A DNA stretch of 63,918 bases, the filler included. It is 4 parts of 4 records of this genome, joined end to end, with 100 filler letters (N's around TTAATTAATTAA, not from the genome) between each part and the next. Parts side by side here need not be neighbours in the genome. Positions count along the whole stretch, not along the records: positions 1 to 25,960 come from SRR31156797_186; 3 more parts are not named here. One strand, written 5' to 3'. Within the stretch, counting starts at the first letter, position 1; each line of letters begins with the position of its first letter. Shown one piece after another: positions 1 to 55,659 of this stretch. The notes under the pieces were generated by a model. The model ran no database searches. It saw only the letters and a program-made list of their open reading frames with translations, and was not told where the DNA came from. A program made the position numbers and the translations under genes.

Positions 1-65
1 CTGTACTCGAAACTAATTAAAACTTATATAAGTGTGGTGAAGTAAAAAAAGGAGGGAAGAGGAAC

Positions 66-1304: not shown

Positions 1305-1316
1305 GAGGTGTGATTA

Positions 1317-2294
1317 ATGAAAAAACTAGTATTATTGATGCTTATATTGATATTTACTTTATCATCATTTGCAGCCTCTGAATTGGATTCGTTATTAAAA
1401 GATGATTCAGAAGCTTTTGATGAACTGTTATTAGATGAAAATGGTAATGCTGCAAAGGATGTTTTGGTTGAAGAGTTAATAGGTCAGGCATTTTTGCAAC
1501 ACGATAGTTCAGATAAGTGGCTTCAAATAATTGAAAAAACTATAATTAAAGAAAAAGATACTGTAATAACAATGGAAAATTCATCAATGAGAGTCAGAAT
1601 GGAAGACGAAACATTTATAAATGTAGGTTCAAGAACTAAACTTTACTTTGAAACTCTTAGAGGAAAACCGGAAGAGGAGCTTATAAGTGAAACGGGACTT
1701 AAGCTTGCTTGGGGAAAAGTATTTTCTAATGTAAGAAAAAAACTTGAAAGTGGTGGAAAATATGAAGTAGAAGCCGGAGGTATAGTTGCCGGTGTAAGAG
1801 GGACACAGTACTTAACTTCATTAACAAAAGTAGGAGAAGTAAGTGTTAAAGTTTATGAAGGGAATGTATTTGTTGTACCTGTAGAAGTGCATAGAGCCAG
1901 AGAAGCTGCAAAGAAAAAAGCTGCATCAGAGTCAACAACAGAAACGACAACAACAGAGACTGAAACAGAAGTAGTAGAGACAACTGAAGAAGTTGTTGTA
2001 GAAGCTAATGAGGAAATAAGTGTTTCTGAGACAGGTATAATAAGTGAGATAACAATTCATAATGAAACTGCTCCTGTTAGTCTGGAAACAGGAAATGACA
2101 TTACTGAAGAGATAAAAGAGATAAAAGAGGAAACAAAAGATAAAGAGGTTTCAACAGAAGAGAAGAAAGAAAGTTCGACTGAAGATAATGAATTATTAGA
2201 AACAGTAACAGATGTAGAGCAGCAAGCAACTTCAACTGTCGAAGAGGTTGATACATCAAGTTCAGGTGTAGATGTGAAAGTAAATATAAGATAA
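1317..2294 (+). CDS. Secreted FecR-domain protein with acidic linkers, cassette 1
   Basis: Signal peptide ending SSFA; FecR motifs (DTVITMENS, AGVRGT, VKVYEGNV); E/T-rich linkers; C-terminus GVDVKVNIR; RBS AGGAGG. Confidence 0.85.
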   Translation: MKKLVLLMLILIFTLSSFAASELDSLLKDDSEAFDELLLDENGNAAKDVLVEELIGQAFLQHDSSDKWLQIIEKTIIKEKDTVITMENSSMRVRMEDETFINVGSRTKLYFETLRGKPEEELISETGLKLAWGKVFSNVRKKLESGGKYEVEAGGIVAGVRGTQYLTSLTKVGEVSVKVYEGNVFVVPVEVHRAREAAKKKAASESTTETTTTETETEVVETTEEVVVEANEEISVSETGIISEITIHNETAPVSLETGNDITEEIKEIKEETKDKEVSTEEKKESSTEDNELLETVTDVEQQATSTVEEVDTSSSGVDVKVNIR

Positions 2295-2345
2295 TATCAA
2301 ATAGTTTTTAACTATAATCGTAAAAAATTAAGGGGTGAATAATAA

Positions 2346-3668
2346 ATGTTTAAGAGAGTTAAGGCAATAATAATTTTAACTACCTTAGTGTTTTTACTAA
2401 CGTCTTGTTTTACTGAGCACATAGCAAACACTAAGGATAATATAGGAAGTTTAGTTGTAGCAGGAAAATGGCCTGCCAGTACAAGTTCTGTATCAAGCTC
2501 TGTTAGTAAGGGTATTCATGCTGACACAGCTACAATAGTACTTTCAATGGAACAAGTAGACGGTTCAGGATCAGTTAGTGAAACAATAACTAAAAGTTCC
2601 GGTGATGAAACTTTTGAAGTAGTAATAGAGGGACTTGCGGTAGGAGAGTGGAAAGTAACTCTTACAGCTAAAGATTCCGGAGGAACTACACTCACTACTG
2701 CATCAAAAACAGTCACAATAACTGCTGAAACTACGGCGTTTAATGCAGTATTTGGACCTGCAACATATGCAGAACTGTTTTTGCCTGCTTCATACGCAAG
2801 TATGGCGGGAGATTATACAGAATACTATGAAGTGTTAGCTTCTTTAGGGATTTCGCAGCGTGTAATTACCGGATATTTTAGTGTATCAGATCCTTTAGGC
2901 TGTTATTACGAATGGGATAATACTCATCAATGTGTTAATAATGCTGGGGCAGGAACTCATACTTATGTGTATAACACAAACAACAAAGTTGCTTCAAGTT
3001 CGAAAGATGGATCAGATGTTTACGAGTTAGGATATAATTCAGATTCAAGAGTAGCTTCGTATAATGATTTGACTGGAAATTATGTAAGTAATACAGCAAC
3101 AGTTTTATATACTGATGAAGGACTTTTGGAACAAATAACAAAAAGTAATAGCTATGAATCAGGGTCTTCTTCTTCAACAGGAACAGATGTTTATAGTTAT
3201 ACATATCAAGACGGAAATCTAATTAAATTAGTCAAAACACAAACATCAACTTCTACTTATGAAGGGGAAACAACGACATATCAATATAGAGATGAATATA
3301 CTTACACTTGGTCAAATGGGGAAGTTGTTGAAATGACAGGAAAAAAATATCAAATCAGTGGCGGTGAAGAAACATTAACAACGTCATTTAAAAGAGCATT
3401 TGTATCAAACACTGGAGGAGTACTTACTTGGCAGGAAACTCAATATAACACATCTGATGATAGTGTTTATAATCAATGGAATTTGGTATACACAGATAGT
3501 GGTGAAGATGGTACTATTGATTCACTTGTAAGAACACAAACGACTAGTGCAGGAACAGAAATAACTGCTACAACAGTATATCAAATTGATTTTACATATG
3601 AAGATGGAAAAGTATCGCAGGTATCATATAACTCTGGTTCTTGTACAGAAGCTCTAACGTATAGATAA
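2346..3668 (+). CDS. Lipoprotein Lp1: N-terminal Ig/pilin-like domain + YD-like beta-rich domain
   Basis: Lipobox LTSC; GKWP...SKGIH; GPATYAELFLP motif shared with paralogs; YxY repeats. Confidence 0.8.
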   Translation: MFKRVKAIIILTTLVFLLTSCFTEHIANTKDNIGSLVVAGKWPASTSSVSSSVSKGIHADTATIVLSMEQVDGSGSVSETITKSSGDETFEVVIEGLAVGEWKVTLTAKDSGGTTLTTASKTVTITAETTAFNAVFGPATYAELFLPASYASMAGDYTEYYEVLASLGISQRVITGYFSVSDPLGCYYEWDNTHQCVNNAGAGTHTYVYNTNNKVASSSKDGSDVYELGYNSDSRVASYNDLTGNYVSNTATVLYTDEGLLEQITKSNSYESGSSSSTGTDVYSYTYQDGNLIKLVKTQTSTSTYEGETTTYQYRDEYTYTWSNGEVVEMTGKKYQISGGEETLTTSFKRAFVSNTGGVLTWQETQYNTSDDSVYNQWNLVYTDSGEDGTIDSLVRTQTTSAGTEITATTVYQIDFTYEDGKVSQVSYNSGSCTEALTYR

Positions 3669-3702
3669 AAAATAAAAAGGAATCTAATTCGAGGTGTTTA
3701 CT

Positions 3703-4458
3703 ATGAGGAAATTAGTAATAATATTGTTTTTAATATGTTTTTCGATTTTTTCATTTTCAGCTTCAGAATTAGATTCCTTATTACAGGATGATAATGAAAC
3801 TTTTGATGAACTGACAGCAGAAAAAGAAGCTTTAGTACCCAAAGAGGTATTTGTAGAGGAGTTAAGCGGAGAGGCCTTTGTCCAAAGAGAGGGCAGTACA
3901 AAATGGTTGCAGTTGATAGAAAAATCTTCGATTCAAGAAAAAGATACAGTTATTACTATGGAAAAAAGCAGTTTGAAAATTAGAATGGAAAAAGAGGTAT
4001 ATATAAATATTGGTGAAAAAACCAAACTTTATTTTGACACTTTGAAGGGAAAACCTGAGAGTGAAGTATTGATAGAGACTGGTTTGAAGCTTGCTTTTGG
4101 GAAAGTTTTTTCTAATGTAAGAAAAAAGCTGGAAATAGGCGGTAGATATGAGATAGAAGCCGGAAGTATAGTTGCCGGTGTAAGAGGCACACAATATTTG
4201 GCTCGTTTAAACAAAGAGGGCGAGATAAATGTAAAAGTGTATGAAGGAAGAGTATATTGTAGATTTATAGATGAAAAAGGGGAGACGATTAAAAAGAAAA
4301 AAACAGAAGATGCAGAAGAAGTTTCAGAGGTTGTATTGGGAGCAAATGAAGAGTTTACTATCGTAGAGGGAGATACAGGTTGGCTTAAAATCCCGCATAG
4401 TGAAACGGCACCAATTGATCATAATAAAATAAACAAAACTTCTGATGAGCTTTATTAA
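3703..4458 (+). CDS. Short secreted FecR-domain protein lacking the C-terminal acidic tail
   Basis: ATG 3703 follows RBS GAGGTG (ORF track starts at GTG 3694); ASELDSLL, AGVRGT and VKVYEGRV motifs. Confidence 0.85.
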   Translation: MRKLVIILFLICFSIFSFSASELDSLLQDDNETFDELTAEKEALVPKEVFVEELSGEAFVQREGSTKWLQLIEKSSIQEKDTVITMEKSSLKIRMEKEVYINIGEKTKLYFDTLKGKPESEVLIETGLKLAFGKVFSNVRKKLEIGGRYEIEAGSIVAGVRGTQYLARLNKEGEINVKVYEGRVYCRFIDEKGETIKKKKTEDAEEVSEVVLGANEEFTIVEGDTGWLKIPHSETAPIDHNKINKTSDELY

Positions 4459-4558
4459 AATATTAAGTAAAAGAGAATTATAAATAAGAAAAAGCTGATA
4501 TTAACAAAATAGTGTAAATATTAATTACAACTAATAGTGAAAGAGCAGCGATATGGAG

Positions 4559-4588
4559 ATGCTGGAATATAATTTCCAGTATTTTTTT
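4559..4588 (+). terminator. Rho-independent terminator after cassette 1
   Basis: ATGCTGGAA-TATAAT-TTCCAGTAT hairpin followed by a T run. Confidence 0.7.
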
Positions 4589-4707
4589 GTTTTTTATGAT
4601 ATTAAAATTTTTTTTAATATTTTTTACGCAAAGTCAAATTAAGGGATTTTTTAGAACAAATCAAAATACTCTGTTTTCTTTGACTTAAAAAATATACAAG
4701 GAGGTAA

Positions 4708-5955
4708 ATGATGAAAAAGAAAAAGATACTTCTAATGTTTCTAGTATCTTTGTGCATAAGCTCGTTTTTTAATTTGCTTTATGCAGAAGATGGCTTGAAA
4801 GAAGCTACTCCAATGCAATTCATTGCAATTTTAATTGAAAATGATGCATTGGATACAGCTGAGGAATTACTGGATTCTTTGACCAGAAAGGAAAAAAAGA
4901 CTTATGAATATTTTTATCTTTCGGCCAAATTAGAAGAGGGAAGAGAGGATAATGATAAAGCAATTAAATTTTATCAAAAAGCTTGGGAAAAGGATAAGGA
5001 GAATTTAGTTCCAAGGTTAAATATTCTTTCAATTTATATCAGGGATAAAAAATACAAGAAAAAGATAAAAAAAGAGTTGAAAACAATTTCCAAATTAGAC
5101 ATGACAGAGGATGAGAGAAAAGAGTTTGAAACATTAAAAGAATTATTTGAAGAAGAAAAACAAAAAAATTATATGTTAAGTTTAGTTATTGGAGCAACTG
5201 CTACAGATAATGTAAATAGTACTAAGGAAGATCTGGAATCAGACACAATAGCAAATTTAAACTTAGCTTTTGCACATCAAAAAATAACAGAAAATAAATT
5301 AGTGCTAATAAGTTTTGTATCATATTCAAACTCTACTTATAGTACATTTTCTGAGAATAGTTCAAATACATTTGTTGCTGGATTTGAACCTGGAAAGAAT
5401 TTTAAATCTTGGCAGGTATCAGCTCCTTTGGTAGTAAACTATACTTTAGAAGATGGTGAAGAAAGCTCAAAAGGTTATTCGTTTGGCTTAGGACTAAATA
5501 AAATATTTAAAAACCAAGCAAATATTGGTTTAGGAACTGATATTATTTATACTGACAATGTAGCTTCAGAATATAAGGGGAACTTATTAGCTTATTATTT
5601 AGAATTTGGTTTTAAGGCCAAATCGGGCAGAGGGTATAGCCTGATTGTAGATGCTGAATCAACGGATTATGATTTGGAAAGTGAAAATTATTCCGGACTT
5701 GGTGGAACTATTTCAACAGACAAATTATATGCTGAAAAATACTTAACTTCTCTTAGTTATAGTGTACTTCAAAAGGATTATGATATTGATAGAGAGGATT
5801 TGAATCATATAATTGATGCAGATTTAAAGGCAAATGTATTTAAAACTAAATGGAAATATATTTTAGCTTATAGTTATATAATGAATGATTCAAATTCAGA
5901 AGATTATGAATATACAACAAATGAGATATCACTAAAACTTAAAAGAGATTTCTAA
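4708..5955 (+). CDS. TPR + outer-membrane beta-barrel protein, cassette 2
   Basis: Signal peptide ending LYA; TPR helices; amphipathic strands; terminal Phe (SLKLKRDF); start may be ATG 4711 given AGGAGG spacing. Confidence 0.78.
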   Translation: MMKKKKILLMFLVSLCISSFFNLLYAEDGLKEATPMQFIAILIENDALDTAEELLDSLTRKEKKTYEYFYLSAKLEEGREDNDKAIKFYQKAWEKDKENLVPRLNILSIYIRDKKYKKKIKKELKTISKLDMTEDERKEFETLKELFEEEKQKNYMLSLVIGATATDNVNSTKEDLESDTIANLNLAFAHQKITENKLVLISFVSYSNSTYSTFSENSSNTFVAGFEPGKNFKSWQVSAPLVVNYTLEDGEESSKGYSFGLGLNKIFKNQANIGLGTDIIYTDNVASEYKGNLLAYYLEFGFKAKSGRGYSLIVDAESTDYDLESENYSGLGGTISTDKLYAEKYLTSLSYSVLQKDYDIDREDLNHIIDADLKANVFKTKWKYILAYSYIMNDSNSEDYEYTTNEISLKLKRDF

Positions 5956-5967
5956 GGAGGTGGAAAA

Positions 5968-7290
5968 ATGAAAAAAATATTTTTAATACTTTTAATAATA
6001 ATTTTAAATCTAACTTCATTTGCAGCCTCTGAATTAGATAGTTTATTACAAGATGACGAGGATGTATTTAGTGAATTAGTAAGTGATGATGATTCCTTGG
6101 AAGCAAAAGAAGCGTATGTAGAGGAACTAATAGGTCAGGCTTTCGTACAACGAGAAGAGGCAGAGAAATGGTTTCAGATAGTAAAAGATACTGCGATAAA
6201 AGAAAAAGATACAGTGCTGACGATGGAAAATTCAAGTATGAAAATCAGAATGGAAGATGAAACATATATTAATGTAGGTGCTAAATCAAAACTTTATTTT
6301 GCAACTATGAGAGGTAAACCGGAAACAGAGCTTATGACAGAGACGGGACTTAAGCTTGCTTTTGGAAAAGTGTTCTCCAATGTAAGAAAGAAACTTGAAA
6401 AAGGTGGACGTTATGAAATAGAAGTCGGAAGTGTGGTTGCCGGTGTAAGAGGAACGCAGTATGATGTTAGTATAGATAAAAAAAAGGAAGTAAAAATTAA
6501 GGTATATGAAGGAAAAGTAATTGTATTACCAACAGAAATATATATTCAACAACGAGAAGCTGAAAAGAAAAAAGAAGAAGAGGAGAAGCAAGAAGAGGCA
6601 GCAGCTGAGGACAGCGACGATGATACAAGTGAAGATGATGGAGAAAATGCGGCAACTGATGAGAGCGAAGAAGATACTGACGAATCTGTAGAAGAAGACA
6701 CTTCGGAAGAAACAGATGAACAAACTACTGAAGAACAAGCCTCAGCAGAGGAAGCTAAAGCAGAAGAAACACCTGAGGAAAAACTTCCCGAGGAACAACC
6801 AATCCTGATAGAGGAAACTGTAGCAAATGAGGAAGCTGTGGAAATAGCTGTAGAGACTCAGTCTGAAACTCTTGCATTTGAAACAGAGGGTATAGTAGTA
6901 AATGCTAATGAGGAAATAAATGTCGAAATATCAGGTTCAATTGGAGATATAGTTGTGCATAATGATGTTGCTCCAACTCAAATAGTTCAAAAAACTGCGG
7001 TTCAAGAGCAGATAGAAGTGATAAAAGAGGAAGCAGCTGAAGTTTTAAAGATAACGCCGGAAGAACTTAAAAAGAAAAAAGAAGAAGCTTCTGCGGAAGA
7101 AGAAAGTGAAGAAGAACAAACTGAAGAGGAAAAACAGGATGAAGAAACTCAGGCAGTTTCAGAAGAGACTTTAATAGACCAACAACTTGATCTTGAAACA
7201 GTAATTGAGGATCTGGTGACTCCTCAAGATATACCTGAAACTGTGGTTACTGAAACACCAAGAGGAAATATATCAGTTAAAGTTAAATAG
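5968..7290 (+). CDS. Secreted FecR-domain protein with long acidic linkers, cassette 2
   Basis: Signal peptide ending TSFA; ASELDSLL; AGVRGT; E/D-rich insert; C-terminus RGNISVKVK. Confidence 0.85.
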   Translation: MKKIFLILLIIILNLTSFAASELDSLLQDDEDVFSELVSDDDSLEAKEAYVEELIGQAFVQREEAEKWFQIVKDTAIKEKDTVLTMENSSMKIRMEDETYINVGAKSKLYFATMRGKPETELMTETGLKLAFGKVFSNVRKKLEKGGRYEIEVGSVVAGVRGTQYDVSIDKKKEVKIKVYEGKVIVLPTEIYIQQREAEKKKEEEEKQEEAAAEDSDDDTSEDDGENAATDESEEDTDESVEEDTSEETDEQTTEEQASAEEAKAEETPEEKLPEEQPILIEETVANEEAVEIAVETQSETLAFETEGIVVNANEEINVEISGSIGDIVVHNDVAPTQIVQKTAVQEQIEVIKEEAAEVLKITPEELKKKKEEASAEEESEEEQTEEEKQDEETQAVSEETLIDQQLDLETVIEDLVTPQDIPETVVTETPRGNISVKVK

Positions 7291-7314
7291 AGGGATGAAC
7301 GGAGGTGTAGATAA

Positions 7315-8844
7315 ATGAAGCGAGTATTTACATTGCTACTAACATTATTAATATTAGTAATGTTACTCCCGGGTTGTATAGGGGAGAAGATAGCAAATAC
7401 AGATAAAAGTGTTGGAATGGTTAGTTTTTCCGGAACTTGGCCGGAAAACACCTGGAATGAAGATAGTGAAGATTCAGAAGTTTCAAAATCCATTTACTCT
7501 GAAACAGGATCAATAACTTTGATTTTGACTAATGGAACAGTTACCAGAACTAAAACAGTTTCAAGGAGTTCGTCTCAAGAAGAGTTTACTATTAGTTTTT
7601 TAGAAGTGCTGGTGGGAGCGTGGACTCTGACACTTGAAATATATGACCTGACAGGAGAAAAAGTTGGCTCAAAATCACAAACTATTAATGTAATAGAGGG
7701 TGATAATTCTGTTAGTATAGTTATGCTGCCGACGGATTACACTATAGGCCCGGCTAACTATGCGGAACTATTTTTACCGGATTCATTCCCAAGATGGATT
7801 GGCTCGATATCATATCATTATGAGATGATGGGATATCTTGATGTGGATGAGATAGAAGTAGGATTAGCTGACGCATATGTTGATACAGATAATAACAGCT
7901 ATTTTTATAAAGGACAAGTGTACTATTGGGGTTGGGTTAATAATCTAAGTGAAGGTGACTCTAGCTCATCGGAAAGTTCTATATATGTTGGAGATGTAGC
8001 AACAGGATCCGGAATAGTTGCTACAATGGATTATACTTACACGGGAGAAATGGTTACATCAGCTGCATATGAGAATACTGCAAGTTTTACTCAAACAGCT
8101 TCAATTACTTATACTGATGCAGGAAGAATAGATACAATGACCGAAACAGTTGGTACTACATCTTCATCGATTACTTTTGCTTATTCCGGAGGAAATGTTT
8201 CATCAGTTTATTTTGAAGGATCTGATGAGCCCTATAGCTTAAACTATTGGTCTGAATCAGTTAGTAAGCTTGAATCAGATACTGAAGCAGATAATAATGG
8301 AAATGTTCAGAGAGAGAATTCTTATACATGGAATAGTTCAAATTCAGAGCAACTTCAGCAATCAGTAATGACCGAATATGATGTAAATGATGAAGACGGA
8401 GATAACAATATTACAGAGAAGCGTTATGAATATGTGACTGATTGTACATATAATTCGAGTGATCAACTTACTCAGGCTGTTAGAACAGGAACATCTTATT
8501 TGGACGATTCTTCTGATTGGCAGCATACTTTTGAATATGTTTATGATTCAACAACAGGTGTAATTGACTACTTTACAATGTCAGAAGAAGAAGAGGAACC
8601 GGACAGTTCATCTGACTATAATAATAATGACACTCAAGATAAGTATACAACTAAAAAAGTTACAGTAGATTTTGAATATGATTCATCGAACAGGGTAGTA
8701 AGAGTGGATTATATATTAGATGACTATTCATATGCATATAATGAAGGAGAATATGATTTAACAACGAGCAGTGAAACAATGTTTTATGAATTAATTAGTT
8801 ATGTAGAAGATGCTGCAACTGAAGTAGTCGTTGAAATCAAATAG
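7315..8844 (+). CDS. Lipoprotein Lp2 (Ig/pilin-like + YD-like beta domain)
   Basis: Lipobox LPGC; GTWP...SKSIY; GPANYAELFLP; ends ATEVVVEIK. Confidence 0.8.
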   Translation: MKRVFTLLLTLLILVMLLPGCIGEKIANTDKSVGMVSFSGTWPENTWNEDSEDSEVSKSIYSETGSITLILTNGTVTRTKTVSRSSSQEEFTISFLEVLVGAWTLTLEIYDLTGEKVGSKSQTINVIEGDNSVSIVMLPTDYTIGPANYAELFLPDSFPRWIGSISYHYEMMGYLDVDEIEVGLADAYVDTDNNSYFYKGQVYYWGWVNNLSEGDSSSSESSIYVGDVATGSGIVATMDYTYTGEMVTSAAYENTASFTQTASITYTDAGRIDTMTETVGTTSSSITFAYSGGNVSSVYFEGSDEPYSLNYWSESVSKLESDTEADNNGNVQRENSYTWNSSNSEQLQQSVMTEYDVNDEDGDNNITEKRYEYVTDCTYNSSDQLTQAVRTGTSYLDDSSDWQHTFEYVYDSTTGVIDYFTMSEEEEEPDSSSDYNNNDTQDKYTTKKVTVDFEYDSSNRVVRVDYILDDYSYAYNEGEYDLTTSSETMFYELISYVEDAATEVVVEIK

Positions 8845-8857
8845 GGAGGTGATTTGA

Positions 8858-10312: not shown

Positions 10313-10321
10313 GTGATGACA

Positions 10322-11734
10322 ATGAAAAAAATAATTTTACTACTCTCTTTGACACTGTTGTTACTAAGTTGTATGGGAGAGAATAATTCAATTTCAGAAT
10401 TGACTTCTACTGGTCAAACAATACAAGATGATATTGGAACAGGGTCATTAACTATCTCAGGTAAATGGCCTGGTAATTCAACAGAAAGTAGTAATCTAAT
10501 ATCAAAGTCAATTCCAAATGATACTGCTAAGATGGTTATTAATATATCAAATGGAACAATAGATCAATCAACTAATGTTACTGATACCGGAAGTCAAACA
10601 TTTAATATAACATTTCAAGATTTGACTCCTGGAACATGGACTGTAAATGTTAGCTCAGAAGATTCAGATGGAAATGTATTATCTAAAATAAAAACAAAAA
10701 CAGTATTAATTACAAGTAACAATAATTCTATTGCAGCGATTTTTCCACCACAAAATTATGCAGAACTATTTTTAACCAGTACAATGTTTCATTTGGCAAA
10801 TGATTATCAAAGATGGTTTGATGTACTTGCGGCACTAGATGTTTCAAGTGTAGAAATGTACAAAAGAGATGCTTATCAAGGTAGTACGAGCTTGGATAGA
10901 TTTGAATATGCCAGATGGATGACAAATAGTTTCTTCACTTATTCGGGTGAAACGGTAGCTTCAAGTACAACAGCGAGTGGAATAATTGTTGATGGTTACA
11001 CTGATACAGATAAAATTGGCGAACTTGTTTTAGGGTCCTCTGATGCAAATGGAAATATAGAGTCAGCAACATACTCTAACATTCAGAACTTTAAAATTGA
11101 TTTTGGGATGACATATGGAACTGCTAGCAGACTTGATACATTATCAATTAGTGGAAAAGTTGATGATGTCGAGAAATATAGTGAATCAGAAACATTTGAT
11201 TATTCAGATGGAAGATATAATTCATCTAGTATAACAGTAAATAGTTCAGAATGGGGAGGAAGCTCAGGAACTTATGCAAATAGAGAGTTAGTACACTTTT
11301 TATTTGGATCAGATAGTTCAAGCTCAGGTATTGAATATTCATTGATTTGGGAAGGTGGAAGGATAGTAACGCTGAATAGTAGTGATAATCTCTCATCAAA
11401 CCCAAGATACGAAACAAGAAACATTAACTATGATTCAACTGATACAGGTAAAGCAATAACTGAAGAAGCGGTAATTAAAGAAGAAATCGGGACAGAGACT
11501 TACAACTATTATAAAGAATCAGTAACATACTCATATGATTCTACTAAAACTCATTTATTAATTGGAAAAACTGTATCATATTTTGATTCTTATGGAATAG
11601 AGCAAGAGAATAGAAGAGTTGCATTTACTTATGGCTCTTTTGATAGAGTAGATACTATAAATTATTATTACACTGAATACGGTGGAAGTGAAGAACTGAT
11701 ATTCTCAGAAAAGCTAAATTATAATACTAATTAA
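10322..11734 (+). CDS. Lipoprotein Lp4 (Ig/pilin-like + beta-rich domain)
   Basis: ATG 10322 after AGGTG (ORF track 10313); lipobox LLSC; GKWP...SKSIP; PPQNYAELFL; ends EKLNYNTN. Confidence 0.8.
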   Translation: MKKIILLLSLTLLLLSCMGENNSISELTSTGQTIQDDIGTGSLTISGKWPGNSTESSNLISKSIPNDTAKMVINISNGTIDQSTNVTDTGSQTFNITFQDLTPGTWTVNVSSEDSDGNVLSKIKTKTVLITSNNNSIAAIFPPQNYAELFLTSTMFHLANDYQRWFDVLAALDVSSVEMYKRDAYQGSTSLDRFEYARWMTNSFFTYSGETVASSTTASGIIVDGYTDTDKIGELVLGSSDANGNIESATYSNIQNFKIDFGMTYGTASRLDTLSISGKVDDVEKYSESETFDYSDGRYNSSSITVNSSEWGGSSGTYANRELVHFLFGSDSSSSGIEYSLIWEGGRIVTLNSSDNLSSNPRYETRNINYDSTDTGKAITEEAVIKEEIGTETYNYYKESVTYSYDSTKTHLLIGKTVSYFDSYGIEQENRRVAFTYGSFDRVDTINYYYTEYGGSEELIFSEKLNYNTN

Positions 11735-11750
11735 AAAGGAGAAATAGTCT

Positions 11751-14090
11751 ATGTTTAGAAAAAGGATACTTGCAATAGGAATGGCTTTAAGTTTATTTTT
11801 TAGTATAGGCTATTTCCTATATGTGAATTTAAATCTTACTTTTTTTGAATTCTTTGAGTTAAAAACTTATGATATGAGATATAAGTTTAGAGAAATAGTA
11901 AAAGATAAAACTGAACGGGATTATGATGTTATAATCGTCGGAGTTGATGAAAGAAGTTTAATCAAGATTGGTAAATGGCCTTGGAGTAGAGACATTCACG
12001 GTAAACTAATTAAAATTTTAAAAGAATACGGTATTAAAAGTGTAGGTTTTGACGTTTCTTTTAGTGAAGCCGGAGCATCGTCAGAGTTTCAAGGCTATAA
12101 AAAAGATCTAAAAACTATTGTAGCTCAAGGTTATAAAGGTGGAGAAATAAGTGAAGAAAAAGCTGTAGATCTGTTAAAGAAGATAAATACTCTGAAAACA
12201 GATGAGGATTATCAATTTGCAGCAGCTCTGAAGGAAACCGGAAATACAGTAATTGGAACATATAATGTAATGAGTGAAGAGGAAGCTATCGATGAGAGTG
12301 TTTTCGAAAACGATCATTATCAAAAAACAAGGTTTGTAGCTGTTGAAGGAATAATGGATGAAATAATCGAAGTTGGAAGAACCGGCGAGAGAAGAGTGAA
12401 ACCTTTTGAAATTTATAAAATTATTCCTCCGATAGATTTAATAGGAAAATTTGCATTTGGGATAGCTCCATTTGAAGTTGGGGAGCCAGATCCTGATGGA
12501 GTATTGAGAGGAGTTGTTTTAGTAACAAAGGAATCTCTTACCAATCTATATTTTCCACCCCTTTATTTAGTAACGTATCTAAAAGCTATGGGGTTATCAA
12601 TGGCTGAGAATGTTTCATTTAATATGAGAGATTCTAAAATTGAAATCTATAACGGTCCTATGAATGATGATAATTTGTTCAAAGTAATTCCAACAAATAA
12701 GAATGGTTATCAAAGGTTGTTTTTCTATGGGAAAGGACATACATTTAAATATATATCATATTATGATATATTAAATGGTTTAGCTGACCCGGAGGATTTT
12801 AAGGATAAAATTGCATTGGTAGGTTATACGGATTCAGCAAAAGGTCTGTATGACTTGAGAGCAACGCCTCTTGACCCTAATACGCCGGGAGTTGAACTTC
12901 ATGCAACGGCTATTCAAAATGTAATTGATGATAAATTTATGACCAGAGCAGAAGTATTACCAACTATGCTTGCAATATTTGTTTTTGCAGCTTTTATTAC
13001 ACTGTCTACCGGTGCTAAACAGATGAATACTGTAGCGGCTAGTGGAATATCAATCTTGGTAATTATACTGTATGTAGTATTTTCATATATGTTATTTGAG
13101 AATGGTGTTTGGATTGAGACATTTTACCCTATATTTGCGTTTATTATTCTTTTTTCAGCTTTGGAAGCATTTAATTATCTTTTTGAAGAGGGAGAGAAGA
13201 GATATATTAAAAATGTATTTGGTCACTATATCAGTCCTGATTTGGTTCAAGATTTAATCAAATCACCTGAAATGCTTAAGCTTGGAGGAGAAAAAAAGGA
13301 GTTGACGGCATTTTTCTCAGATATTCAAGGATTTACATCGATCTCTGAAGCTCTTGATCCGGAAGAATTGGTAGAATTTTTAAATGAGTATTTGTCCTTA
13401 ATGACTGAAATTATCCTAAAACACAATGGAACTATTGATAAATATATCGGTGATGCAATTATGGCAATATTTGGGGCTCCGGTTAATCTCGAAAATAATG
13501 CTTTAAGTTGCTGTTATGCAGCTCTTGAATATCAAGAAAGATTAGAACAACTTCGGGAAAAAAATGAAAAAGAAGGAAAACAAATTTTTTATGCAAGAAT
13601 TGGTATAAATACCGGAGATATGGTTGTTGGAAATATGGGTTGTGAAGTTGGAGAGATAAAAAAATTCAACTATACAATCATTGGAGATGAAGTAAACCTG
13701 GCTGCTCGTCTTGAGGGTGCTAATAAAATGTATGGAACTTTTATCATGATAAGTGAGAATACATATCAAAGAGTAAAAGACTACTTTGAAGTACGAATTT
13801 TAGATAGAGCGAAAGTAAAAGGTAAGAAAAAAGCTGTACAAACTTATGAATTAATGGGTAAAAAAGGTGAAGTTGTAGAGAAACTAATGAAAGTGAAAGA
13901 GTTATATGATCATGGAATGGAGTGTTATTTTGCTCAAAACTGGGACGAAGCAGATGAAGCATTCAAGGCAGCGCTTGATGTAAACCCTGCTGACGGGCCT
14001 TCAAAACTTTATATTAAAAGAATTGAAGAATATAAGGAAACTCCGCCACCTGAAAACTGGGATGGAAGTTATACATTCACTTCAAAATAA
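11751..14090 (+). CDS. CHASE2-domain class III adenylate cyclase with C-terminal TPR-like tail
   Basis: N-terminal TM; CHASE2 motifs (IIIVGVDERSL, GKWPWSR, DPDGVLR, PGVELHA); three TMs; FSDIQGFT, DKYIGDAIMAIFG (Lys points to ATP specificity), NYTIIGDEVNLAARLEGANK; PPENWDG tail. Confidence 0.93.
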   Translation: MFRKRILAIGMALSLFFSIGYFLYVNLNLTFFEFFELKTYDMRYKFREIVKDKTERDYDVIIVGVDERSLIKIGKWPWSRDIHGKLIKILKEYGIKSVGFDVSFSEAGASSEFQGYKKDLKTIVAQGYKGGEISEEKAVDLLKKINTLKTDEDYQFAAALKETGNTVIGTYNVMSEEEAIDESVFENDHYQKTRFVAVEGIMDEIIEVGRTGERRVKPFEIYKIIPPIDLIGKFAFGIAPFEVGEPDPDGVLRGVVLVTKESLTNLYFPPLYLVTYLKAMGLSMAENVSFNMRDSKIEIYNGPMNDDNLFKVIPTNKNGYQRLFFYGKGHTFKYISYYDILNGLADPEDFKDKIALVGYTDSAKGLYDLRATPLDPNTPGVELHATAIQNVIDDKFMTRAEVLPTMLAIFVFAAFITLSTGAKQMNTVAASGISILVIILYVVFSYMLFENGVWIETFYPIFAFIILFSALEAFNYLFEEGEKRYIKNVFGHYISPDLVQDLIKSPEMLKLGGEKKELTAFFSDIQGFTSISEALDPEELVEFLNEYLSLMTEIILKHNGTIDKYIGDAIMAIFGAPVNLENNALSCCYAALEYQERLEQLREKNEKEGKQIFYARIGINTGDMVVGNMGCEVGEIKKFNYTIIGDEVNLAARLEGANKMYGTFIMISENTYQRVKDYFEVRILDRAKVKGKKKAVQTYELMGKKGEVVEKLMKVKELYDHGMECYFAQNWDEADEAFKAALDVNPADGPSKLYIKRIEEYKETPPPENWDGSYTFTSK

Positions 14091-14121
14091 TAATATGATT
14101 TCTTATATAAAAATTAAGCAA

Positions 14122-14164
14122 AAGGGCTACAGTGTATCTTACACTTAGCCCTTATTTTGTTTTG
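14122..14164 (+). terminator. Rho-independent terminator after the cyclase
   Basis: AAGGGCTA(C)AGTGTA-TCT-TACACTTAGCCCTT hairpin plus T-rich tail. Confidence 0.7.
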
Positions 14165-14214
14165 TTTGAAAAAAGATTCAAAGATCAATATATTGTGCAA
14201 ATTGAATATAAATA

Positions 14215-14223
14215 TGTTATAAT
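14215..14223 (+). promoter_or_regulatory. Extended -10 promoter element for cassette 3
   Basis: TGTTATAAT (TGn-TATAAT) about 70 bp upstream of the 14294 start. Confidence 0.5.
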
Positions 14224-14293
14224 AGTGATGACTATTTTGGTTTTTTGAATGGAATATGGGATGATTTTGAAATATAATTAAGGGGTTTTTAGC

Positions 14294-15940
14294 ATGGCAA
14301 AAAAGGGATTAGCAATTTTAATAATGATTCTAATAAGTATAACAGGTATTTTTTATGTTGCTTATAGAAACTCTACCAGCATTGAAGAAAAATCTAGCGA
14401 ACAAGTATCTGTAAAAGAAGATAACAAAAAAATACTTGAAGAATTCAACGAAGTGAAGACTCGTGTAATAGAGAAAGCTGAAAAAAAACCTGAAAAAATT
14501 GAAATTGAAGATAAAAAAGCAGTAATAACTAAGATAGCAAAAGAAAAAGGAAATGAAAATAAGAGCATAATTATTAAGAAAATAGTTGAAAAACCAATAA
14601 AAAAACAAGAAATCAAACAAAAAGAGTTTGAAGATAAAAAAACTGAAGATCAAGTTGAATTTGAAATTATTGAAAAGGAAAAAATAATTGAAGTAGAGAA
14701 ATTAGCTAAAATTCCTGTTAAAACTACTATAGAATTAGAAAATGAGAAATTTATAGTAAAAGAAAAAATAGAGATAAAAGAAGCTGAAGAAGTTGATCAA
14801 GCACAATTAATTGGAATTATGATTGAGCTTGATAACTATAGTGTTGCAGAAGAGATGTTAGGCGAAATGTCTGACAAAGATTCTTATGATTATTATTTTC
14901 TTTCTGCAAAGCTTGCTGAAGGACAGGGAGAAACTAAAGAAGCCTTGGAACTGTATGAAAAAGCTTATGAAAAAGATGAAACAAATCCCATTCCTAGATT
15001 AAGAATATTAAGAGTTTATATTAGAAATAAAAAATATAGAAGAAGAATAAAAAGAGAATTAAAATTAATATCAGAACTTGAAATGACTGAAAGTGAAAGA
15101 AAAGAGTTTGAAGTTCTTAAAAAATTACTAAATAAAGACGAGAGATTTAAGCATCTTTTTAGAATTTCAACAGGAGTGACTGTAACAGATAATGTTGAAA
15201 GTGATTATGAAAATGAACAGTCAGATTTTAAATCAACACTTAGCTTAACCTACTTAAATCTATTTAAGATAAATGATAAATACTCTTTAACGAGTTTTGC
15301 TTCATATTATAATGAGATGTATGCTGAAACAAATGAGAAAAGCTCTCACAGTATATTTGTCGGGACGGAGTTAAACAGAACTTTTGATAAATGGAAAATA
15401 TCTGTTCCCTTAATGTTAAGTTATAGTATGGTTGATAATGAAGAAGCTGTTAGAAGTACTTCGCTTGGATTAGAAGCAACAAAATTAGTAAATGATAGCT
15501 TAAGTACATCTTTTGGAGTAAATGTTGAACCAATGGTTAATACTCTATATGATTTTGATGGAAATGAATACTTTTCATTTGCGAATTTAGAATGGCAAAA
15601 AGATAAATCAACAAACTATAAATTTGAAATAACTGCTGAACAGGCATCTTACTCTGAAGAGAGTGAGAATTATAACGGATATGGAGCTGAGATATCCAGA
15701 CAGAAGCTTTATAAGGAAAAGTATGACTTAGAATTAAAGTATAATGTGATATTTGAAAATTATACAGAAGATAATAGAGATGATTTAGTTCATCTCTTTG
15801 ATATAAGTTTAAAATCAAATCTATTTAATACTAAATGGGAGTATATTTTAGCTTATGGGCTTGAAATTGCTGACTCAAATTATACTGAATATGAGTATCA
15901 AAAAAATGAATTATCTATTAAATTGAGAAGAGATTTTTAG
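14294..15940 (+). CDS. TPR + outer-membrane beta-barrel protein with N-terminal hydrophobic segment and K/E-rich extension, cassette 3
   Basis: C-terminal ~380 aa align by eye with 4708 (YYFLSAKL, PRLRIL, TDNV, KWEYILAY, IKLRRDF); about 140 extra K/E/I-rich residues. Confidence 0.75.
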   Translation: MAKKGLAILIMILISITGIFYVAYRNSTSIEEKSSEQVSVKEDNKKILEEFNEVKTRVIEKAEKKPEKIEIEDKKAVITKIAKEKGNENKSIIIKKIVEKPIKKQEIKQKEFEDKKTEDQVEFEIIEKEKIIEVEKLAKIPVKTTIELENEKFIVKEKIEIKEAEEVDQAQLIGIMIELDNYSVAEEMLGEMSDKDSYDYYFLSAKLAEGQGETKEALELYEKAYEKDETNPIPRLRILRVYIRNKKYRRRIKRELKLISELEMTESERKEFEVLKKLLNKDERFKHLFRISTGVTVTDNVESDYENEQSDFKSTLSLTYLNLFKINDKYSLTSFASYYNEMYAETNEKSSHSIFVGTELNRTFDKWKISVPLMLSYSMVDNEEAVRSTSLGLEATKLVNDSLSTSFGVNVEPMVNTLYDFDGNEYFSFANLEWQKDKSTNYKFEITAEQASYSEESENYNGYGAEISRQKLYKEKYDLELKYNVIFENYTEDNRDDLVHLFDISLKSNLFNTKWEYILAYGLEIADSNYTEYEYQKNELSIKLRRDF

Positions 15941-15949
15941 GAGGCTGAA

Positions 15950-17287
15950 ATGTTGAAAAAAATAATATTACTTATATTTTTATCTGTTTTTTCAATTACT
16001 TGTTTTTCAGCTTCTGAATTAGATAGTTTATTGAAAGATGATGACGATTTATTTAGTGACCTTATTTCTGAAGAAGACACTTTAGTTCCCAAAGATGCTT
16101 TTGTTGAGGAGTTGTTTGGACAGGTGTTTCTTCAACACGAAGGAAGTAGCAAATGGCTGCAAGTGATAGAAAATTCAGTTGTTAAGGAGAAGGACACTGT
16201 TTTAACAATGGAAAATTCTGGTGTTAAGATCAGAATGGAAGAGGAAACATATATAAATTTGGGTTCAAGATCAAAAATTTATTTTGAGACCTTACTTGGA
16301 AAACCTGATGTAGAACTGATGACAGAAACGGGGCTTAAATTAGCATGGGGAAAAGTTTACTCAAATGTTAGAAAAAAGCTTGAAAAAGGTGGAAGGTATG
16401 AAATAGAAGCCGGAGGAGTTGTAGCCGGAGTAAGAGGAACTAAGTTTGAAGTTGAAGCCGAAAAAACCGGAGAAGTAAAAGTAAAGGTGTTTGAAGGAAA
16501 AGTATTTGTACTTCCATTAGAAGTTTATAATCAAAAAAAAGAGGAAGCTAAAAAAGCTTCAGAAGAGGATGGCGAAAACTCTCAAGAACAAACTGATGAA
16601 GAAAATGAGTCAGAAGAGAACTCAGAAGAAAATGAAAATTCTCAAGATGATTCTTCTGAAGAAAATGAAGATAATAATGAACAGGAAGAAGAAAACTCAG
16701 AAGCGAATAAAGAAGTAAATGAAGAGGCTAAAACTTCAGAAAACGAAGAAAACATAGTTGAACAAGCAAGCGAGCAAGCTAAAATAGAAATTGAGACAGA
16801 AATTGAACAGGAATTAGATGAGAAAAAAGAGATTCAAATGGATAATCTCTTAGATGAAATAATTTTAGGTTCTGATGATGAGCTTAATATAGATCAAGAT
16901 GGCTTAGTTGCTGAACTAAGTAAACATGATGATGAAGCACCTGTGGAACTAGCTAAATCAAGTGAAGTAAGTGCTGAAATTCAACAAGTTACAGAAGATG
17001 CTAAAGAAGAGGAAGATGAAAAACAATTAAATCAGAATGTTTCTAATAAAAATGAAGCTGATGATGAAGAAAGTGAAGAAGAAGAGACAACTGAAGAGGA
17101 AGAAGAAACAACTGTTGCAGAGGAAATCCCGGAAGAGCTAGAAGAAGAAACATTATCAGAGGAGATAATCCCTGATAAAATTCCTGAGGAAGAGATAGAT
17201 GAAATAGAGCAAACAGTAAAAGAAACAGTAGAAGAAGTTGTTGAGGAAAATACTTCTGTAGGGAAATTAATAATTGAGATTAAATAA
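15950..17287 (+). CDS. Secreted FecR-domain protein with long acidic linkers, cassette 3
   Basis: Signal peptide; ASELDSLL; AGVRGT; E/N-rich insert; ends VGKLIIEIK. Confidence 0.85.
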   Translation: MLKKIILLIFLSVFSITCFSASELDSLLKDDDDLFSDLISEEDTLVPKDAFVEELFGQVFLQHEGSSKWLQVIENSVVKEKDTVLTMENSGVKIRMEEETYINLGSRSKIYFETLLGKPDVELMTETGLKLAWGKVYSNVRKKLEKGGRYEIEAGGVVAGVRGTKFEVEAEKTGEVKVKVFEGKVFVLPLEVYNQKKEEAKKASEEDGENSQEQTDEENESEENSEENENSQDDSSEENEDNNEQEEENSEANKEVNEEAKTSENEENIVEQASEQAKIEIETEIEQELDEKKEIQMDNLLDEIILGSDDELNIDQDGLVAELSKHDDEAPVELAKSSEVSAEIQQVTEDAKEEEDEKQLNQNVSNKNEADDEESEEEETTEEEEETTVAEEIPEELEEETLSEEIIPDKIPEEEIDEIEQTVKETVEEVVEENTSVGKLIIEIK

Positions 17288-17313
17288 TTTCGAAGTATTG
17301 GGGGTGAAGGAGA

Positions 17314-18831
17314 TTGAAAAATAATTTACAAATATTAATAGTCTTGCTAATAACGCTTCTGTTATCAGCGTGCATTGGTGATAATATTGCTAACATAGAT
17401 GAAGGTGTAGGAAGCATAATCATTTCAGGAAGATGGTCTGGGGAAATGAGTAATAAATCAAGCAGTATTTCACGGACAATTTACTCAGAAGCCGGCTCAA
17501 TAGAGGTTACGCTAACAAAAGATTCGCAGGAAATAAGTCAAACTGAAACAAGAACATCTGATTCAACATCATTTTATATTGTTATGGATGATGTAGAGAT
17601 AGGTGATTGGACAATGACTCTGATTATATATGATTATGATGGTCAGGAAGTTGGAAGGACAAGTGAGAGTGTAAGCGTAAATTCAGGAGATAACCCGGTG
17701 GATTTACTTGTAACTCCTAATGACTACTCCATAGGCCCTGCAAATTATGCTGAATTATTTTTACCTGATAAATCTGCTGAAAATTATAGTTTGTTTTCTT
17801 GTCAATATGAAATCATGTCTTATTTAGATATTGAGGAGATTGATCTTTATACTGCTGATGCATATGTGAGATCAGATGTTTATAATAATCATACTGATTT
17901 TTTTAGTAAAAATCAAATTTTTTGCTGGAATTGGCCCAATATAACTGGATATGAAGAGGGAAGAGAAGATGTTGACAGCACTTATATCTCCTCTAATAGT
18001 GATGTGGCAGCAACGATGAAATATACTTATTCAGATGAGTATATTGTAGCGGCAACATATAGTAATGAAGCTGATTTTACTGAAAATGTAATTGTGACCT
18101 ATAATGATTCCGGAAAAATAAGCCAAGTTGAAAGTCTCACAGAAAAAGGAACTAGCACTTCAAATGAAAAACTGACATATTCATATGAAAACGGGATTTT
18201 AACCGTAGTAGAATCAGAAGTGGGAAACGGAACTCCTAAAACTCTAGAATATAATGATGGGTATCTCACTTCAAATATTGAGAAAGACTCAGATGGAAAT
18301 AAAGTAAGTGAACAAACATATACTTGGAACTCTTCTGAATTAAGCACTTTTAGTCATATAGAATATGATGTTAATGATTATGACGGAGATAGCAATACAA
18401 GCGAAATCAGATGGCAGAGAGATGCTACATATACTTATGATGAAGGTAAATTAAAAGAAGTTATGAATACAGATAAAATTCTATTAAGCGGTTATGAAAC
18501 AGATGAAAAAAAGGTTATTACATACAGCTATAATTCTAATGATGGCTTATCATCTATTTCGATAGTTAAGTATTATTATGAAGATAGTTTGAGTGATTAT
18601 AACGAAGATGATGAACAAGGGTTTTATGAGTCTAATAAAGTTGATATTAACTTTACCTATGATGATGACAACTTAGTTAGGAAAGTGAGCTACAATTATA
18701 CAACATATGATTATATTTATAACTCAGGAACTTTGGAATATGAAAGAACTGATACTGAAAATGAGATCTTCTATGAAAAAATTTATTATACATCTGATAG
18801 TGGCAGTGATGTTACAATCGGAGTTCAGTAG
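17314..18831 (+). CDS. Lipoprotein Lp5 (closest to Lp2)
   Basis: TTG start; lipobox LSAC; GRWS...SRTIYSE; GPANYAELFLP; ends GSDVTIGVQ. Confidence 0.8.
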   Translation: MKNNLQILIVLLITLLLSACIGDNIANIDEGVGSIIISGRWSGEMSNKSSSISRTIYSEAGSIEVTLTKDSQEISQTETRTSDSTSFYIVMDDVEIGDWTMTLIIYDYDGQEVGRTSESVSVNSGDNPVDLLVTPNDYSIGPANYAELFLPDKSAENYSLFSCQYEIMSYLDIEEIDLYTADAYVRSDVYNNHTDFFSKNQIFCWNWPNITGYEEGREDVDSTYISSNSDVAATMKYTYSDEYIVAATYSNEADFTENVIVTYNDSGKISQVESLTEKGTSTSNEKLTYSYENGILTVVESEVGNGTPKTLEYNDGYLTSNIEKDSDGNKVSEQTYTWNSSELSTFSHIEYDVNDYDGDSNTSEIRWQRDATYTYDEGKLKEVMNTDKILLSGYETDEKKVITYSYNSNDGLSSISIVKYYYEDSLSDYNEDDEQGFYESNKVDINFTYDDDNLVRKVSYNYTTYDYIYNSGTLEYERTDTENEIFYEKIYYTSDSGSDVTIGVQ

Positions 18832-18843
18832 GGAGGTGCTAAC

Positions 18844-20913: not shown

Positions 20914-20966
20914 AAGAAGCAAAATAGAAAAATTCAGATAAAATAATAAAAATGAGGTTGATGATA

Positions 20967-22391: not shown

Positions 22392-22593
22392 TAAATACCA
22401 AAGATAGTGCTCAGTTTGAAAATAAAATAAGTTATTTTCATGTAAAAAAATGACCCCTCATATAAAAAGTCACAGAAAACATTTTATTTTTTTCTTATAT
22501 TATTATATAATAATCCTAGATGAAAAAGATGTATATGTATTATTTGAGCTTATAGAGTTAACTAACATAAAGAAATGTATGCGGGGGGCATAG

Positions 22594-24393: not shown

Positions 24394-24540
24394 CATAAAC
24401 TGGAACTGTGAACTGATTTATAGTATAATAAATTAGTTGAGAGTTCCTTTTTTATTAACTAAAAATTTGTTTATACTCTGGGAAAGTATAAACTTGTGTC
24501 ATCTGATATGAAAACTTGATATTATATAAATTAAGGAACA

Positions 24541-55653: not shown

Positions 55654-55659
55654 TGTTGT

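Follow-up and report, generated by a model that had tools for sequence, protein, structure and literature searches.

What purpose could be served by a short, aliphatic strand that closes both secreted FecR proteins and the lipoproteins encoded directly after them? The question is raised by a 63,918-nucleotide stretch of DNA (hereafter the window), which consists of four parts of four records of one genome joined end to end with 100 filler letters between neighbouring parts, and of which positions 1 to 25,960 come from SRR31156797_186. Translation of the open reading frames (ORFs) on the plus strand of positions 66–20133 revealed three paralogous cassettes of the same build, each composed of a Slam-like outer-membrane protein (OMP) with tetratricopeptide repeats (TPR) and a barrel, a secreted FecR protein, and one to three lipoproteins (Lp). 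Cassette 1 reads OMP1, FecR1, Lp1 and a short FecR protein before a terminator-like hairpin, cassette 2 reads OMP2, FecR2, Lp2, Lp3 and Lp4 and continues directly into the gene of a class III nucleotide cyclase with a fused CHASE2 sensor, and cassette 3 reads OMP3, FecR3, Lp5 and Lp6 (Table 1). The CHASE2 class III cyclase is thus surrounded by three envelope cassettes that are paralogous to each other, and the cyclase, four FecR proteins and three TPR barrels all lie on one strand within 20 kb. Pfam analysis detected PF04773 in all four FecR proteins (4.6e-11 to 1.8e-13) and TPR repeats in all three OMPs; the same search assigned none of the six lipoproteins to a family above threshold, and an Rfam search of the window returned no match. 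The locus is of wider interest, as it is not yet settled which signals are perceived by CHASE2 sensors and in what way. The one studied case requires NsrA as a partner in the outer membrane according to an excerpt of PMC7529298, and a 7–9-residue tag common to FecR proteins and lipoproteins would offer a handle for finding who binds whom.

The first-pass annotation had noticed free C-terminal strands on the long FecR proteins and on the non-terminal lipoproteins and had interpreted them as the links of an ordered, pilus-like donor-strand chain. ORF translation reproduced all of the quoted FecR and lipoprotein C-termini exactly. The motif [VIL]x[VIL]x[VIL][KRQ], placed at the very end of the protein, was found in six of the ten cassette FecR and lipoprotein ORFs (FecR1, FecR2, FecR3, Lp2, Lp3 and Lp5) and in none of the 27 other window ORFs of at least 150 amino acids, two of which end in a masked X; anywhere along all 37 ORFs, it occurs at 40 of 20,790 positions (0.0019). 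As the FecR proteins are paralogous to each other and so are the lipoproteins, the six tails count as at least two independent cases, and, judged by sequence, the occurrence of one C-terminal motif in two unrelated families of the same operon is far from chance.

Each tail is a 7–9-residue amphipathic strand, with one face formed purely by V, I or L, a polar opposite face, and K, R or Q as the last residue. In the lipoprotein alignment, the tail corresponds to approximately 12 extra residues beyond the common domain end ...[LI]xY, starting with a polar turn of 4–6 residues, which is followed by the strand, while the FecR alignment placed the strand after the second long Glu/Asp-rich linker, in line with the acidic linker described initially. 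These long FecR linkers are probably disordered. That the tail is free could be substantiated for Lp2, as residues 480–489 of the AlphaFold2 model showed a predicted local distance difference test (pLDDT) score below 50 and no secondary structure; the FecR tails lie outside the model. The strand preceding the Lp2 tail was modelled confidently, and the final decapeptide AATEVVVEIK remained unfolded though the 4–6-residue turn would permit a hairpin in cis. Comparison of the Lp2 and Lp3 tails revealed four of nine identical residues and four conservative changes, with a BLOSUM62 score of 24 out of a possible 30-odd over the last seven residues, at an overall identity of 30% between the two proteins, which suggests that the tail is kept at least as well as the rest of the protein. 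The proposed likeness of the tails to the first strand of the lipoproteins is real; it turned out to be unspecific, as only 6 of 72 best internal 7-mer matches fell on that strand. Five of these six belong to a single strand of Lp6, and the remaining best matches were spread across many strands. The idea that the tails mimic either the first lipoprotein strand or the lone strand at residues 157–163 was dropped on account of this scatter.

Within this window, the presence of a tail was found to track gene position as had been suggested, in that every lipoprotein with a full tail is followed by another lipoprotein and the last-placed Lp1 and Lp4 are tail-less; the rule did not extend to Lp6, which is last in its cassette and keeps the short tail KTTVIDI. 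The ratio of tails to lipoproteins is 1:1 in cassette 1, 3:3 in cassette 2, and two plus one short tail to two in cassette 3, and the orphan short FecR protein lacks a second linker, a tail, and a lipoprotein after it. To place these proteins among their relatives, a profile of the six lipoproteins was compared with 1.84 billion representatives, resulting in 99 proteins at E ≤1e-3, of which four matched over the full length (P0001–P0004), the other 95 having only the N-terminal domain in common. Of these four, P0001 shows 62% identity to Lp6 and the C-terminus ETVIDI; the others close with KITYVGYE (P0002), ETLSYR (P0003, a fragment with 67% identity to Lp1) and TETISY (P0004). P0002 and a relative of OMP1 (P0102, 52% identical) probably belong to one 10,713-bp contig.

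A maximum-likelihood tree of these ten lipoprotein sequences (Lp1–Lp6 and P0001–P0004) resolved three clades, between which the proteins are 22–37% identical. Clade C (support 95/96) comprises Lp1, P0003, Lp4 and P0002, all of them tail-less, with Lp1 and Lp4 standing last in their cassettes. Clade A (96/96) unites Lp5 with P0004 and has Lp2 nearby at weak support (83/88), Lp2 and Lp5 both being tailed and not last. Clade B (100/100) holds Lp3, Lp6 and P0001, of which only Lp3, the member known to precede another lipoprotein, carries a full tail. In the single contrast available, namely Lp3 versus Lp6, the tail state, as read from the sequences, is one that follows position rather than clade. 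The motif of the tails is new, as is the way in which it depends on position.

What such a tail could be added to depends on the fold of the lipoproteins. The AlphaFold2 model of mature Lp2 (16-row alignment; mean pLDDT 77.7, predicted template modelling score 0.76) consists of a beta-sandwich (residues 13–112), a short helical part with one lone strand (129–190), and 18 strands (214–476). Foldseek returned 60 matches at E ≤1e-3 (best 2.8e-9), the top 13 of which were all Rhs or teneurin-like, and the C-terminal two thirds of Lp2 matched the YD-repeat shells of Rhs, teneurin and Tc-toxin proteins (E 2.8e-9 to 1e-5). In VIA-align, a method independent of Foldseek, residues 130–479 superposed on closed barrels of 16–19 strands, including VDAC1 (Z 11.5, root-mean-square deviation 3.9 Å over 228 residues) and two soluble 'porin-like' Bacteroides proteins (Z 9.1), and the N-domain matched FN3-like domains (Z 7.4–8.7). 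The mean Kyte-Doolittle value of the more hydrophobic strand face was 0.28 for Lp2 versus 1.06 for the membrane strands of OMP1, and given such polar strands we interpret this domain as a YD barrel that is small and soluble, rather than as a membrane barrel. The aliphatic face of the tails, composed of V and I only as read from the tail sequences, is far more hydrophobic than these barrel strands. As an observation in its own right, the YD part of Lp2 (window 7735–8841, mature residues 130–489) is modelled as an unusual miniature YD shell, a closed polar barrel of approximately 18–19 strands with helices in front, which superposes on VDAC and Tom40 (Z 11.5 to 10.5). The Pfam family RHS_repeat gave a weak match to Lp6 (0.01, below the cut-off), a word-index search with Lp2 gave no match, and all ESM Atlas scores for Lp2 were below 0.9 and serve as leads only. 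As in Rhs/YD shells, Lp2 contains a YD-repeat beta-hairpin sheet, and its relative P0003 is annotated by one source as a YD repeat-containing protein, whereas the cocoons of Rhs, Tc and teneurin proteins differ from it, as Lp2 is a small polar barrel of approximately 18 strands with no match to a toxin domain, autoprotease or Rhs core motif.

Based on these data, the best interpretation of the tails is that of connector strands in an envelope signalling module of Slam-like, FecR, lipoprotein and CHASE2 components, acting in trans and docking most likely on a lipoprotein, a reading which we favour tentatively, as a plausible proposal rather than a probable one. In donor-strand complementation, the sheet of a neighbour is filled up by a short strand at a protein terminus, which is amphipathic and has aliphatic residues in alternation. 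Each tail would add to the beta-sheet of another cassette component, so that every lipoprotein would be matched by one strand. The acidic tether of FecR would connect its head in the periplasm with an assembly that is lipid-anchored in the outer membrane, and the CHASE2 cyclase would receive the state of this assembly. The analysis shows the sequences, the enrichment of the motif, the position pattern, the predicted folds and the module context, whereas binding, acceptor site, order, topology and signalling are elements of this scheme that we infer. The module context speaks for the scheme with the CHASE2 cyclase, the TPR arms with 14-strand barrels and, on contig L001 (see below), a FecR protein beside a true SlipAM barrel. 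A linear chain from FecR through successive lipoproteins (FecR→Lp→Lp→Lp) is one possible arrangement; alternatively, Lp2, Lp3 and Lp5 could cap themselves and the FecR tail could bind the single tail-less lipoprotein of its cassette, and the counts fit both arrangements equally. If the tags are donor strands, assembly by strand exchange would extend beyond pili to a signalling complex. A complex prediction of mature, untruncated Lp1 with residues 281–325 of FecR1, performed by ESMFold2 with the supplied alignment remaining unused, gave ipSAE values of 0.00 and 0.00, which is evidence neither way.

Several points weigh against connector strands docking on lipoproteins. Binding of a tail to a partner is a prediction, and since the Lp2 model superposes on closed barrels, an open sheet edge that might accept a strand is not evident. 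A full tail was present in none of the four full-length relatives, Lp6 retains a conserved short tail despite its last position, and the position pattern itself derives from three paralogous cassettes of one genome, with a chance of roughly one in eight, by a rough count, that a tail-less member would be last. An unrelated 590-amino-acid lipoprotein encoded elsewhere in the window (41721–43493, minus strand; lipobox LATAC, CarboxypepD_reg domains) ends in DILDVVILEIE, a similar amphipathic strand of aliphatic and acidic residues, so that this organism may use the motif more generally as a signal. Finally, the best internal match of the FecR2 tail (score 27) was the last strand of OMP1, which points to a barrel rather than a lipoprotein as the partner.

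In the main rival reading, the Slam-like barrel of each cassette would be the partner of its tails, which would serve as docking or targeting strands and bind at the barrel seam or at the TPR arm for surface export or for retention of FecR at the outer membrane. Type 11 cargo is targeted by a barrel at its C-terminus, to which the tails would then correspond in minimal form. According to the available text of PMC5449769, the Slam architecture combines a periplasmic TPR domain with a 14-strand barrel, and OMP1 is likewise predicted to form a TPR arm and a barrel of 14 strands, with the OMP genes lying directly upstream of those of the lipoproteins and a secreted protein. Slam cargo includes TbpB, fHbp and hemophilin. 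Passages of PMC8406197 place the targeting information of type 11 cargo in its C-terminal domain, and TbpB_B_D is the domain that marks such cargo. At the one distant locus identified, on the metagenome contig L001, positions 6936–10641 encode a true SlipAM (PF04575) TPR barrel (27.4 bits versus a cut-off of 22), followed directly by a 792-amino-acid FecR protein with an N-terminal FecR domain and two TbpB_B_D barrels (PF01298, 2e-13), which ends ...GVYQVSR, the last strand of its cargo barrel, in a style similar to GVDVKVNIR. An aliphatic tail face would suit a lipid-facing strand, and among 6,320 cassette 7-mers the FecR2 tail segment NISVKVK best matched NLSLKVK from OMP1 and EISLKLK from OMP2, in both cases the last barrel strand. 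However, the NLSLKVK match is weak, as its score was attained 6 times in 300 full shuffles and 20 times in 300 shuffles that preserved the faces, and the other five of the six tails tried scored 8–15; we therefore regard the pairing of the FecR2 tail with the last barrel strand as suggestive, though not significant after six tests.

The barrels themselves also speak against this possibility. A PF04575 (SlipAM/DUF560) search gave no match at E ≤0.1 for OMP1, OMP2 or OMP3, and comparison with the SlipAM protein of L001 was not significant (BLASTP E 1.1, hhalign probability 0.1); scores for TPR_Slam, a family with a cut-off of 35.2 bits, were 23.3 and 15.9. PF01298 matched no cassette protein in the Pfam search, and instead of the eight-strand TbpB-type barrel of Slam cargo the lipoproteins carry a YD barrel of approximately 18–19 strands and the FecR proteins only a strand. 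As the tail is absent from the last lipoproteins and from all four relatives, it cannot be a general export signal of the lipoprotein family, and docking on the barrel leaves the ratio of one tail per lipoprotein unexplained. We thus consider it somewhat unlikely that the barrel is the partner.

Less likely still appears a role in cis or without any partner, in which the tails of Lp2, Lp3 and Lp5 would cap their own YD barrels, those of the FecR proteins would fold back on the FecR domain and may auto-inhibit it, and the position pattern would be a relic of an offset tandem duplication of a unit made of tail, spacer and lipoprotein. The link of 4–6 residues between last barrel strand and tail would be long enough for a hairpin, and the conserved middle region of the FecR proteins contains tail-like strands, among them EVVVEAN of FecR1, which matches the Lp2 tail better than any other internal segment (score 21). 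An offset duplication would leave an upstream tail on every copy except the last, and spacer lengths indeed recur across the cassettes, with 24 and 26 nucleotides between FecR and lipoprotein genes and 13 and 12 nucleotides between lipoprotein genes. On the other hand, AlphaFold2 showed no packing of the tail on Lp2 (pLDDT 35, from a shallow alignment), and the clades are old (22–37% identity) and have nevertheless kept the tail pattern, where a neutral relic would have decayed; the tails are therefore under selection.

We assign a low probability to an ordered donor-strand row that is not a pilus, in which a long acidic tether, possibly threaded through the Slam-like barrel, would tie the periplasmic FecR sensor head to a genetically ordered row of surface YD lipoproteins, each locked to the next by its C-terminal strand, and the state of the row would set the activity of the CHASE2 cyclase. 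If true, trans-envelope receptors would gain a new class, and strands donated between a signalling protein and lipoproteins would be seen for the first time. Compared with donor-strand complementation in chaperone-usher pili and archaeal cannulae, the strand described here is C-terminal, neither chaperone nor usher is present, and the Lp2 model shows no incomplete immunoglobulin (Ig) fold that misses a strand.

The chain proposed in the first-pass annotation was of type V pilus character: a protease would cut each lipoprotein after S-K/R, the first strand would be lost, and the tail of the preceding subunit would fill the resulting groove, in the order FecR→Lp→Lp→tip. As described in the excerpted text of PMC13655056, type V pilins consist of two transthyretin-like sandwiches, are produced as lipoprotein precursors with a cleavable loop after the anchor strand, and include an anchor pilin; C-terminal donor strands are carried by base and stalk subunits, which keep them folded back in self-complementation as monomers, and are absent from tip and adaptor pilins. 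Several features resemble this system. As for the type V pili of Bacteroidia, such as FimA and Mfa1 of Porphyromonas gingivalis, the lipoprotein precursors derive from one operon; all six possess a lipobox, the signal peptide running up to a Cys that is invariant among them (C21, numbered as in Lp1), and all six show a first strand followed by a loop of 12–20 residues that ends in S-[KR] and was modelled with low confidence in Lp2, thus likewise placing a basic residue after the first strand. The last subunits of cassettes 1 and 2 are tail-less like distal type V subunits, whereas here the donor function is predicted and Lp6 keeps its short tail. The window also encodes a protein with a C-terminal sorting domain of the type 9 secretion system (T9SS). 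Phyla related to Bacteroidota, among which type V pili are found, typically possess this system.

The subunits themselves proved different. Lp2 is built from an Ig/FN3-like domain and a YD-repeat barrel and is not pilin-like; the Foldseek matches listed were all Rhs, teneurin and Tc YD shells or other non-pilin folds, and VIA-align gave barrels and FN3-like domains. Type V pilins were absent among the Foldseek and VIA-align matches listed, which is no evidence in itself, as these whole-model searches barely tested the N-domain. The supposed cleavage site was not supported either. It is part of a motif WP...S[KR]x[IL], in which all six lipoproteins share W42, S54 and I57 without exception, and a strand to be discarded is not expected to hold the invariant Trp of its domain. 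Among seven of the 95 relatives with only the N-domain in common that were read, S-[KR]-x-[IL] was present in six and WP in six, all seven continuing into FN3-like or other C-terminal parts without tails; conservation of both elements in tail-less relatives marks them as structural features of a common lipoprotein N-domain, with no sign of processing, although the lipoproteins may still be cleaved. The Lp2 tail is free in the model, in contrast to the self-complemented donor strands of type V pilins, and Pfam analysis revealed no protease gene within the cassettes. Nor can FecR serve as the anchor that had been assigned to it: the aligned leaders, as read from the sequence, are of the signal-peptidase-I type, ending ...SFA/ASELD, and a membrane anchor is lacking, so that FecR is a soluble secreted protein and not a lipoprotein, and the cassettes, which start with this soluble sensor, contain no anchor pilin kept lipidated at the base. 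With neither an anchor pilin nor a protease in the cassettes and no evidence of cleavage, a protease-triggered pilus is very improbable.

Regarding the other components, the AlphaFold2 model of OMP1 (pLDDT 83.8, 7-row alignment) contains helices at residues 31–148 and 15 strand elements within 152–411, which correspond to 14 strands after merging two elements that are two residues apart. Foldseek aligned it with the TPR-bearing exporters BcsC (1.2e-14), PelBC and PgaA, and with the 14-strand OmpG at template modelling scores of 0.65–0.71 normalised to the target. Its Pfam matches were TPR_19 (2.2e-6) and, both below the cut-off, TPR_Slam (8.7e-5) and DUF481 (1.3e-3); ESM Atlas placed it with clusters named TPR and 'beta-barrel porin 2' and with none of Slam name. 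A search of PDB sequences with the barrels retrieved designed TPR proteins only, and a word-index search with OMP2 gave no match. The N-terminus of OMP3 (14294–14800) carries an extension of approximately 130 residues rich in Lys, Glu and Ile between signal sequence and TPR arm, which OMP1 and OMP2 lack. For the FecR proteins, the nearest named NCBIfam families were LipL45/Lsa33 (5e-9 for FecR1 and 1e-9 for FecR2, at 36–38 bits versus a cut-off of 350), with the LipL45-type match running through the linker into the second beta region. The Leptospira proteins LipL45 and Lsa33 are likewise envelope proteins with a FecR domain, whereas the FecR proteins of the window are not lipoproteins and possess long acidic linkers and a tail. 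Scans of species genomes with FecR2 and with the FecR alignment identified no relatives, and a PDB sequence search with FecR gave no match.

We found no published description of a module that combines Slam-like, FecR, lipoprotein and CHASE2 components. A literature search for DUF560 together with FecR retrieved nothing, and the main text of a 2025 survey of type 11 cargo, in the portion available, mentions FecR, CHASE2 and Rhs zero times each (PMC12282271). Some resemblance exists to the NsrA system of Sinorhizobium meliloti, compared here by description, in which, according to excerpts of PMC7529298, the outer-membrane-associated NsrA is needed for signal perception by the CHASE2 cyclases CyaK, CyaD1 and CyaD2 and contact between basic protein signals and acidic regions of the surface has been suggested. 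Both loci combine a CHASE2 cyclase with an outer-membrane partner, and the FecR linkers described here are acidic as well; NsrA is, however, one large protein with a barrel portion at residues 600–1200, in contrast to the separate, tripled genes, YD lipoproteins and tails of the window.

Table 1 Positions along the window of the genes, tails and hairpin of the three cassettes, with the basis of each assignment
Feature	Position	Strand	Description
OMP1	66..1304	+	Cassette 1; signal peptide, TPR arm, 14-strand outer-membrane barrel; ends ...KREFN
FecR1	1317..2294	+	PF04773 (4.6e-11); secreted, acidic linkers
FecR1 tail GVDVKVNIR	2265..2291	+	Translation, motif scan
Lp1	2346..3668	+	Clade C; sole and last lipoprotein of cassette 1; tail-less, ends EALTYR
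Short orphan FecR protein (254 amino acids)	3694..4458	+	PF04773 (5.9e-11); ends ...SDELY
Terminator-like hairpin	4555..4586	+	13 pairs and T run; closes cassette 1; consensus scan only
OMP2	4708..5955	+	Cassette 2; TPR and barrel; ends ...KRDF
FecR2	5968..7290	+	PF04773 (1.8e-13); two long acidic linkers
FecR2 tail GNISVKVK	7264..7287	+	C-terminus RGNISVKVK; translation, motif scan
Lp2	7315..8844	+	Ig/FN3-like domain, short helical part, polar YD-repeat barrel; AlphaFold2, Foldseek, VIA-align
Lp2 tail ATEVVVEIK	8815..8841	+	Unfolded in AlphaFold2 model
Lp3	8858..10312	+	Lipoprotein, clade B
Lp3 tail TTDIVVEIR	10283..10309	+	Translation, motif scan
Lp4	10313..11734	+	Clade C; last in cassette 2; tail-less, ends EKLNYNTN
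CHASE2 sensor fused to class III nucleotide cyclase	11751..14090	+	CHASE2 (1.1e-47), Guanylate_cyc (2e-27)
OMP3	14294..15940	+	Cassette 3; TPR and barrel; Lys/Glu-rich N-terminal extension
FecR3	15950..17287	+	PF04773 (3.4e-13)
FecR3 tail VGKLIIEIK	17258..17284	+	Translation, motif scan
Lp5	17314..18831	+	Lipoprotein, clade A
Lp5 tail GSDVTIGVQ	18802..18828	+	Translation, motif scan
Lp6	18844..20133	+	Clade B; last in cassette 3
Lp6 short tail KTTVIDI	20110..20130	+	Relative P0001 ends ETVIDI

Contigs from one estuary RNA-library run aligned with positions 451–1391, 1415–1843, 2179–2870, 3038–3707, 4027–4380, 9725–10665 and 11060–11371, with 0–16 differing letters each, which suggests transcription of the covered parts of cassettes 1 and 2, carry-over of DNA being a possible source as well; parts of cassette 3 were without such cover. 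The contig at 2179–2870 spans the FecR1 tail and the start of Lp1; a difference at 2264 (A to G), which adjoins the tail, is synonymous (TCA to TCG), and no difference was listed within the tail itself. In sequencing run X1, one contig matched bases 1–20000 without difference, and diverged sister contigs were approximately 80% identical to window positions 1548–14090. On one of these sister contigs, of 11.7 kb, a FecR gene lies approximately 3.5 kb from the CHASE2 cyclase, indicating that related strains carry shorter versions of the cassettes.

Further features were noted along the window. Directly after cassette 3, positions 20254–25804 (plus strand) encode a histidine kinase and a response regulator along with a pair of proteins that carry HDxGK motifs similar to those of HD-GYP domains, as read from the translations. 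A giant RTX/HCBP-repeat protein of 4579 amino acids (26013–40839, minus strand; HemolysinCabind 3.4e-111), whose sequence is partly masked, is adjoined by a YD-repeat lipoprotein of 365 amino acids. The sorting domain mentioned above belongs to a 1459-amino-acid subtilase (50397–54776, plus strand) with GEVED, cohesin, CarboxypepD_reg and Por_Secre_tail (2.3e-11) domains, which ends ...EEKLIIQ and implies a T9SS in the host genome. Along the window, the G+C content rises from 27–37% (positions 1–44000) to 41–55% (44001–62000), and the sign of the GC skew switches at about 26 kb; the cause may be an island of surface-protein genes with low GC or a join in the assembly.

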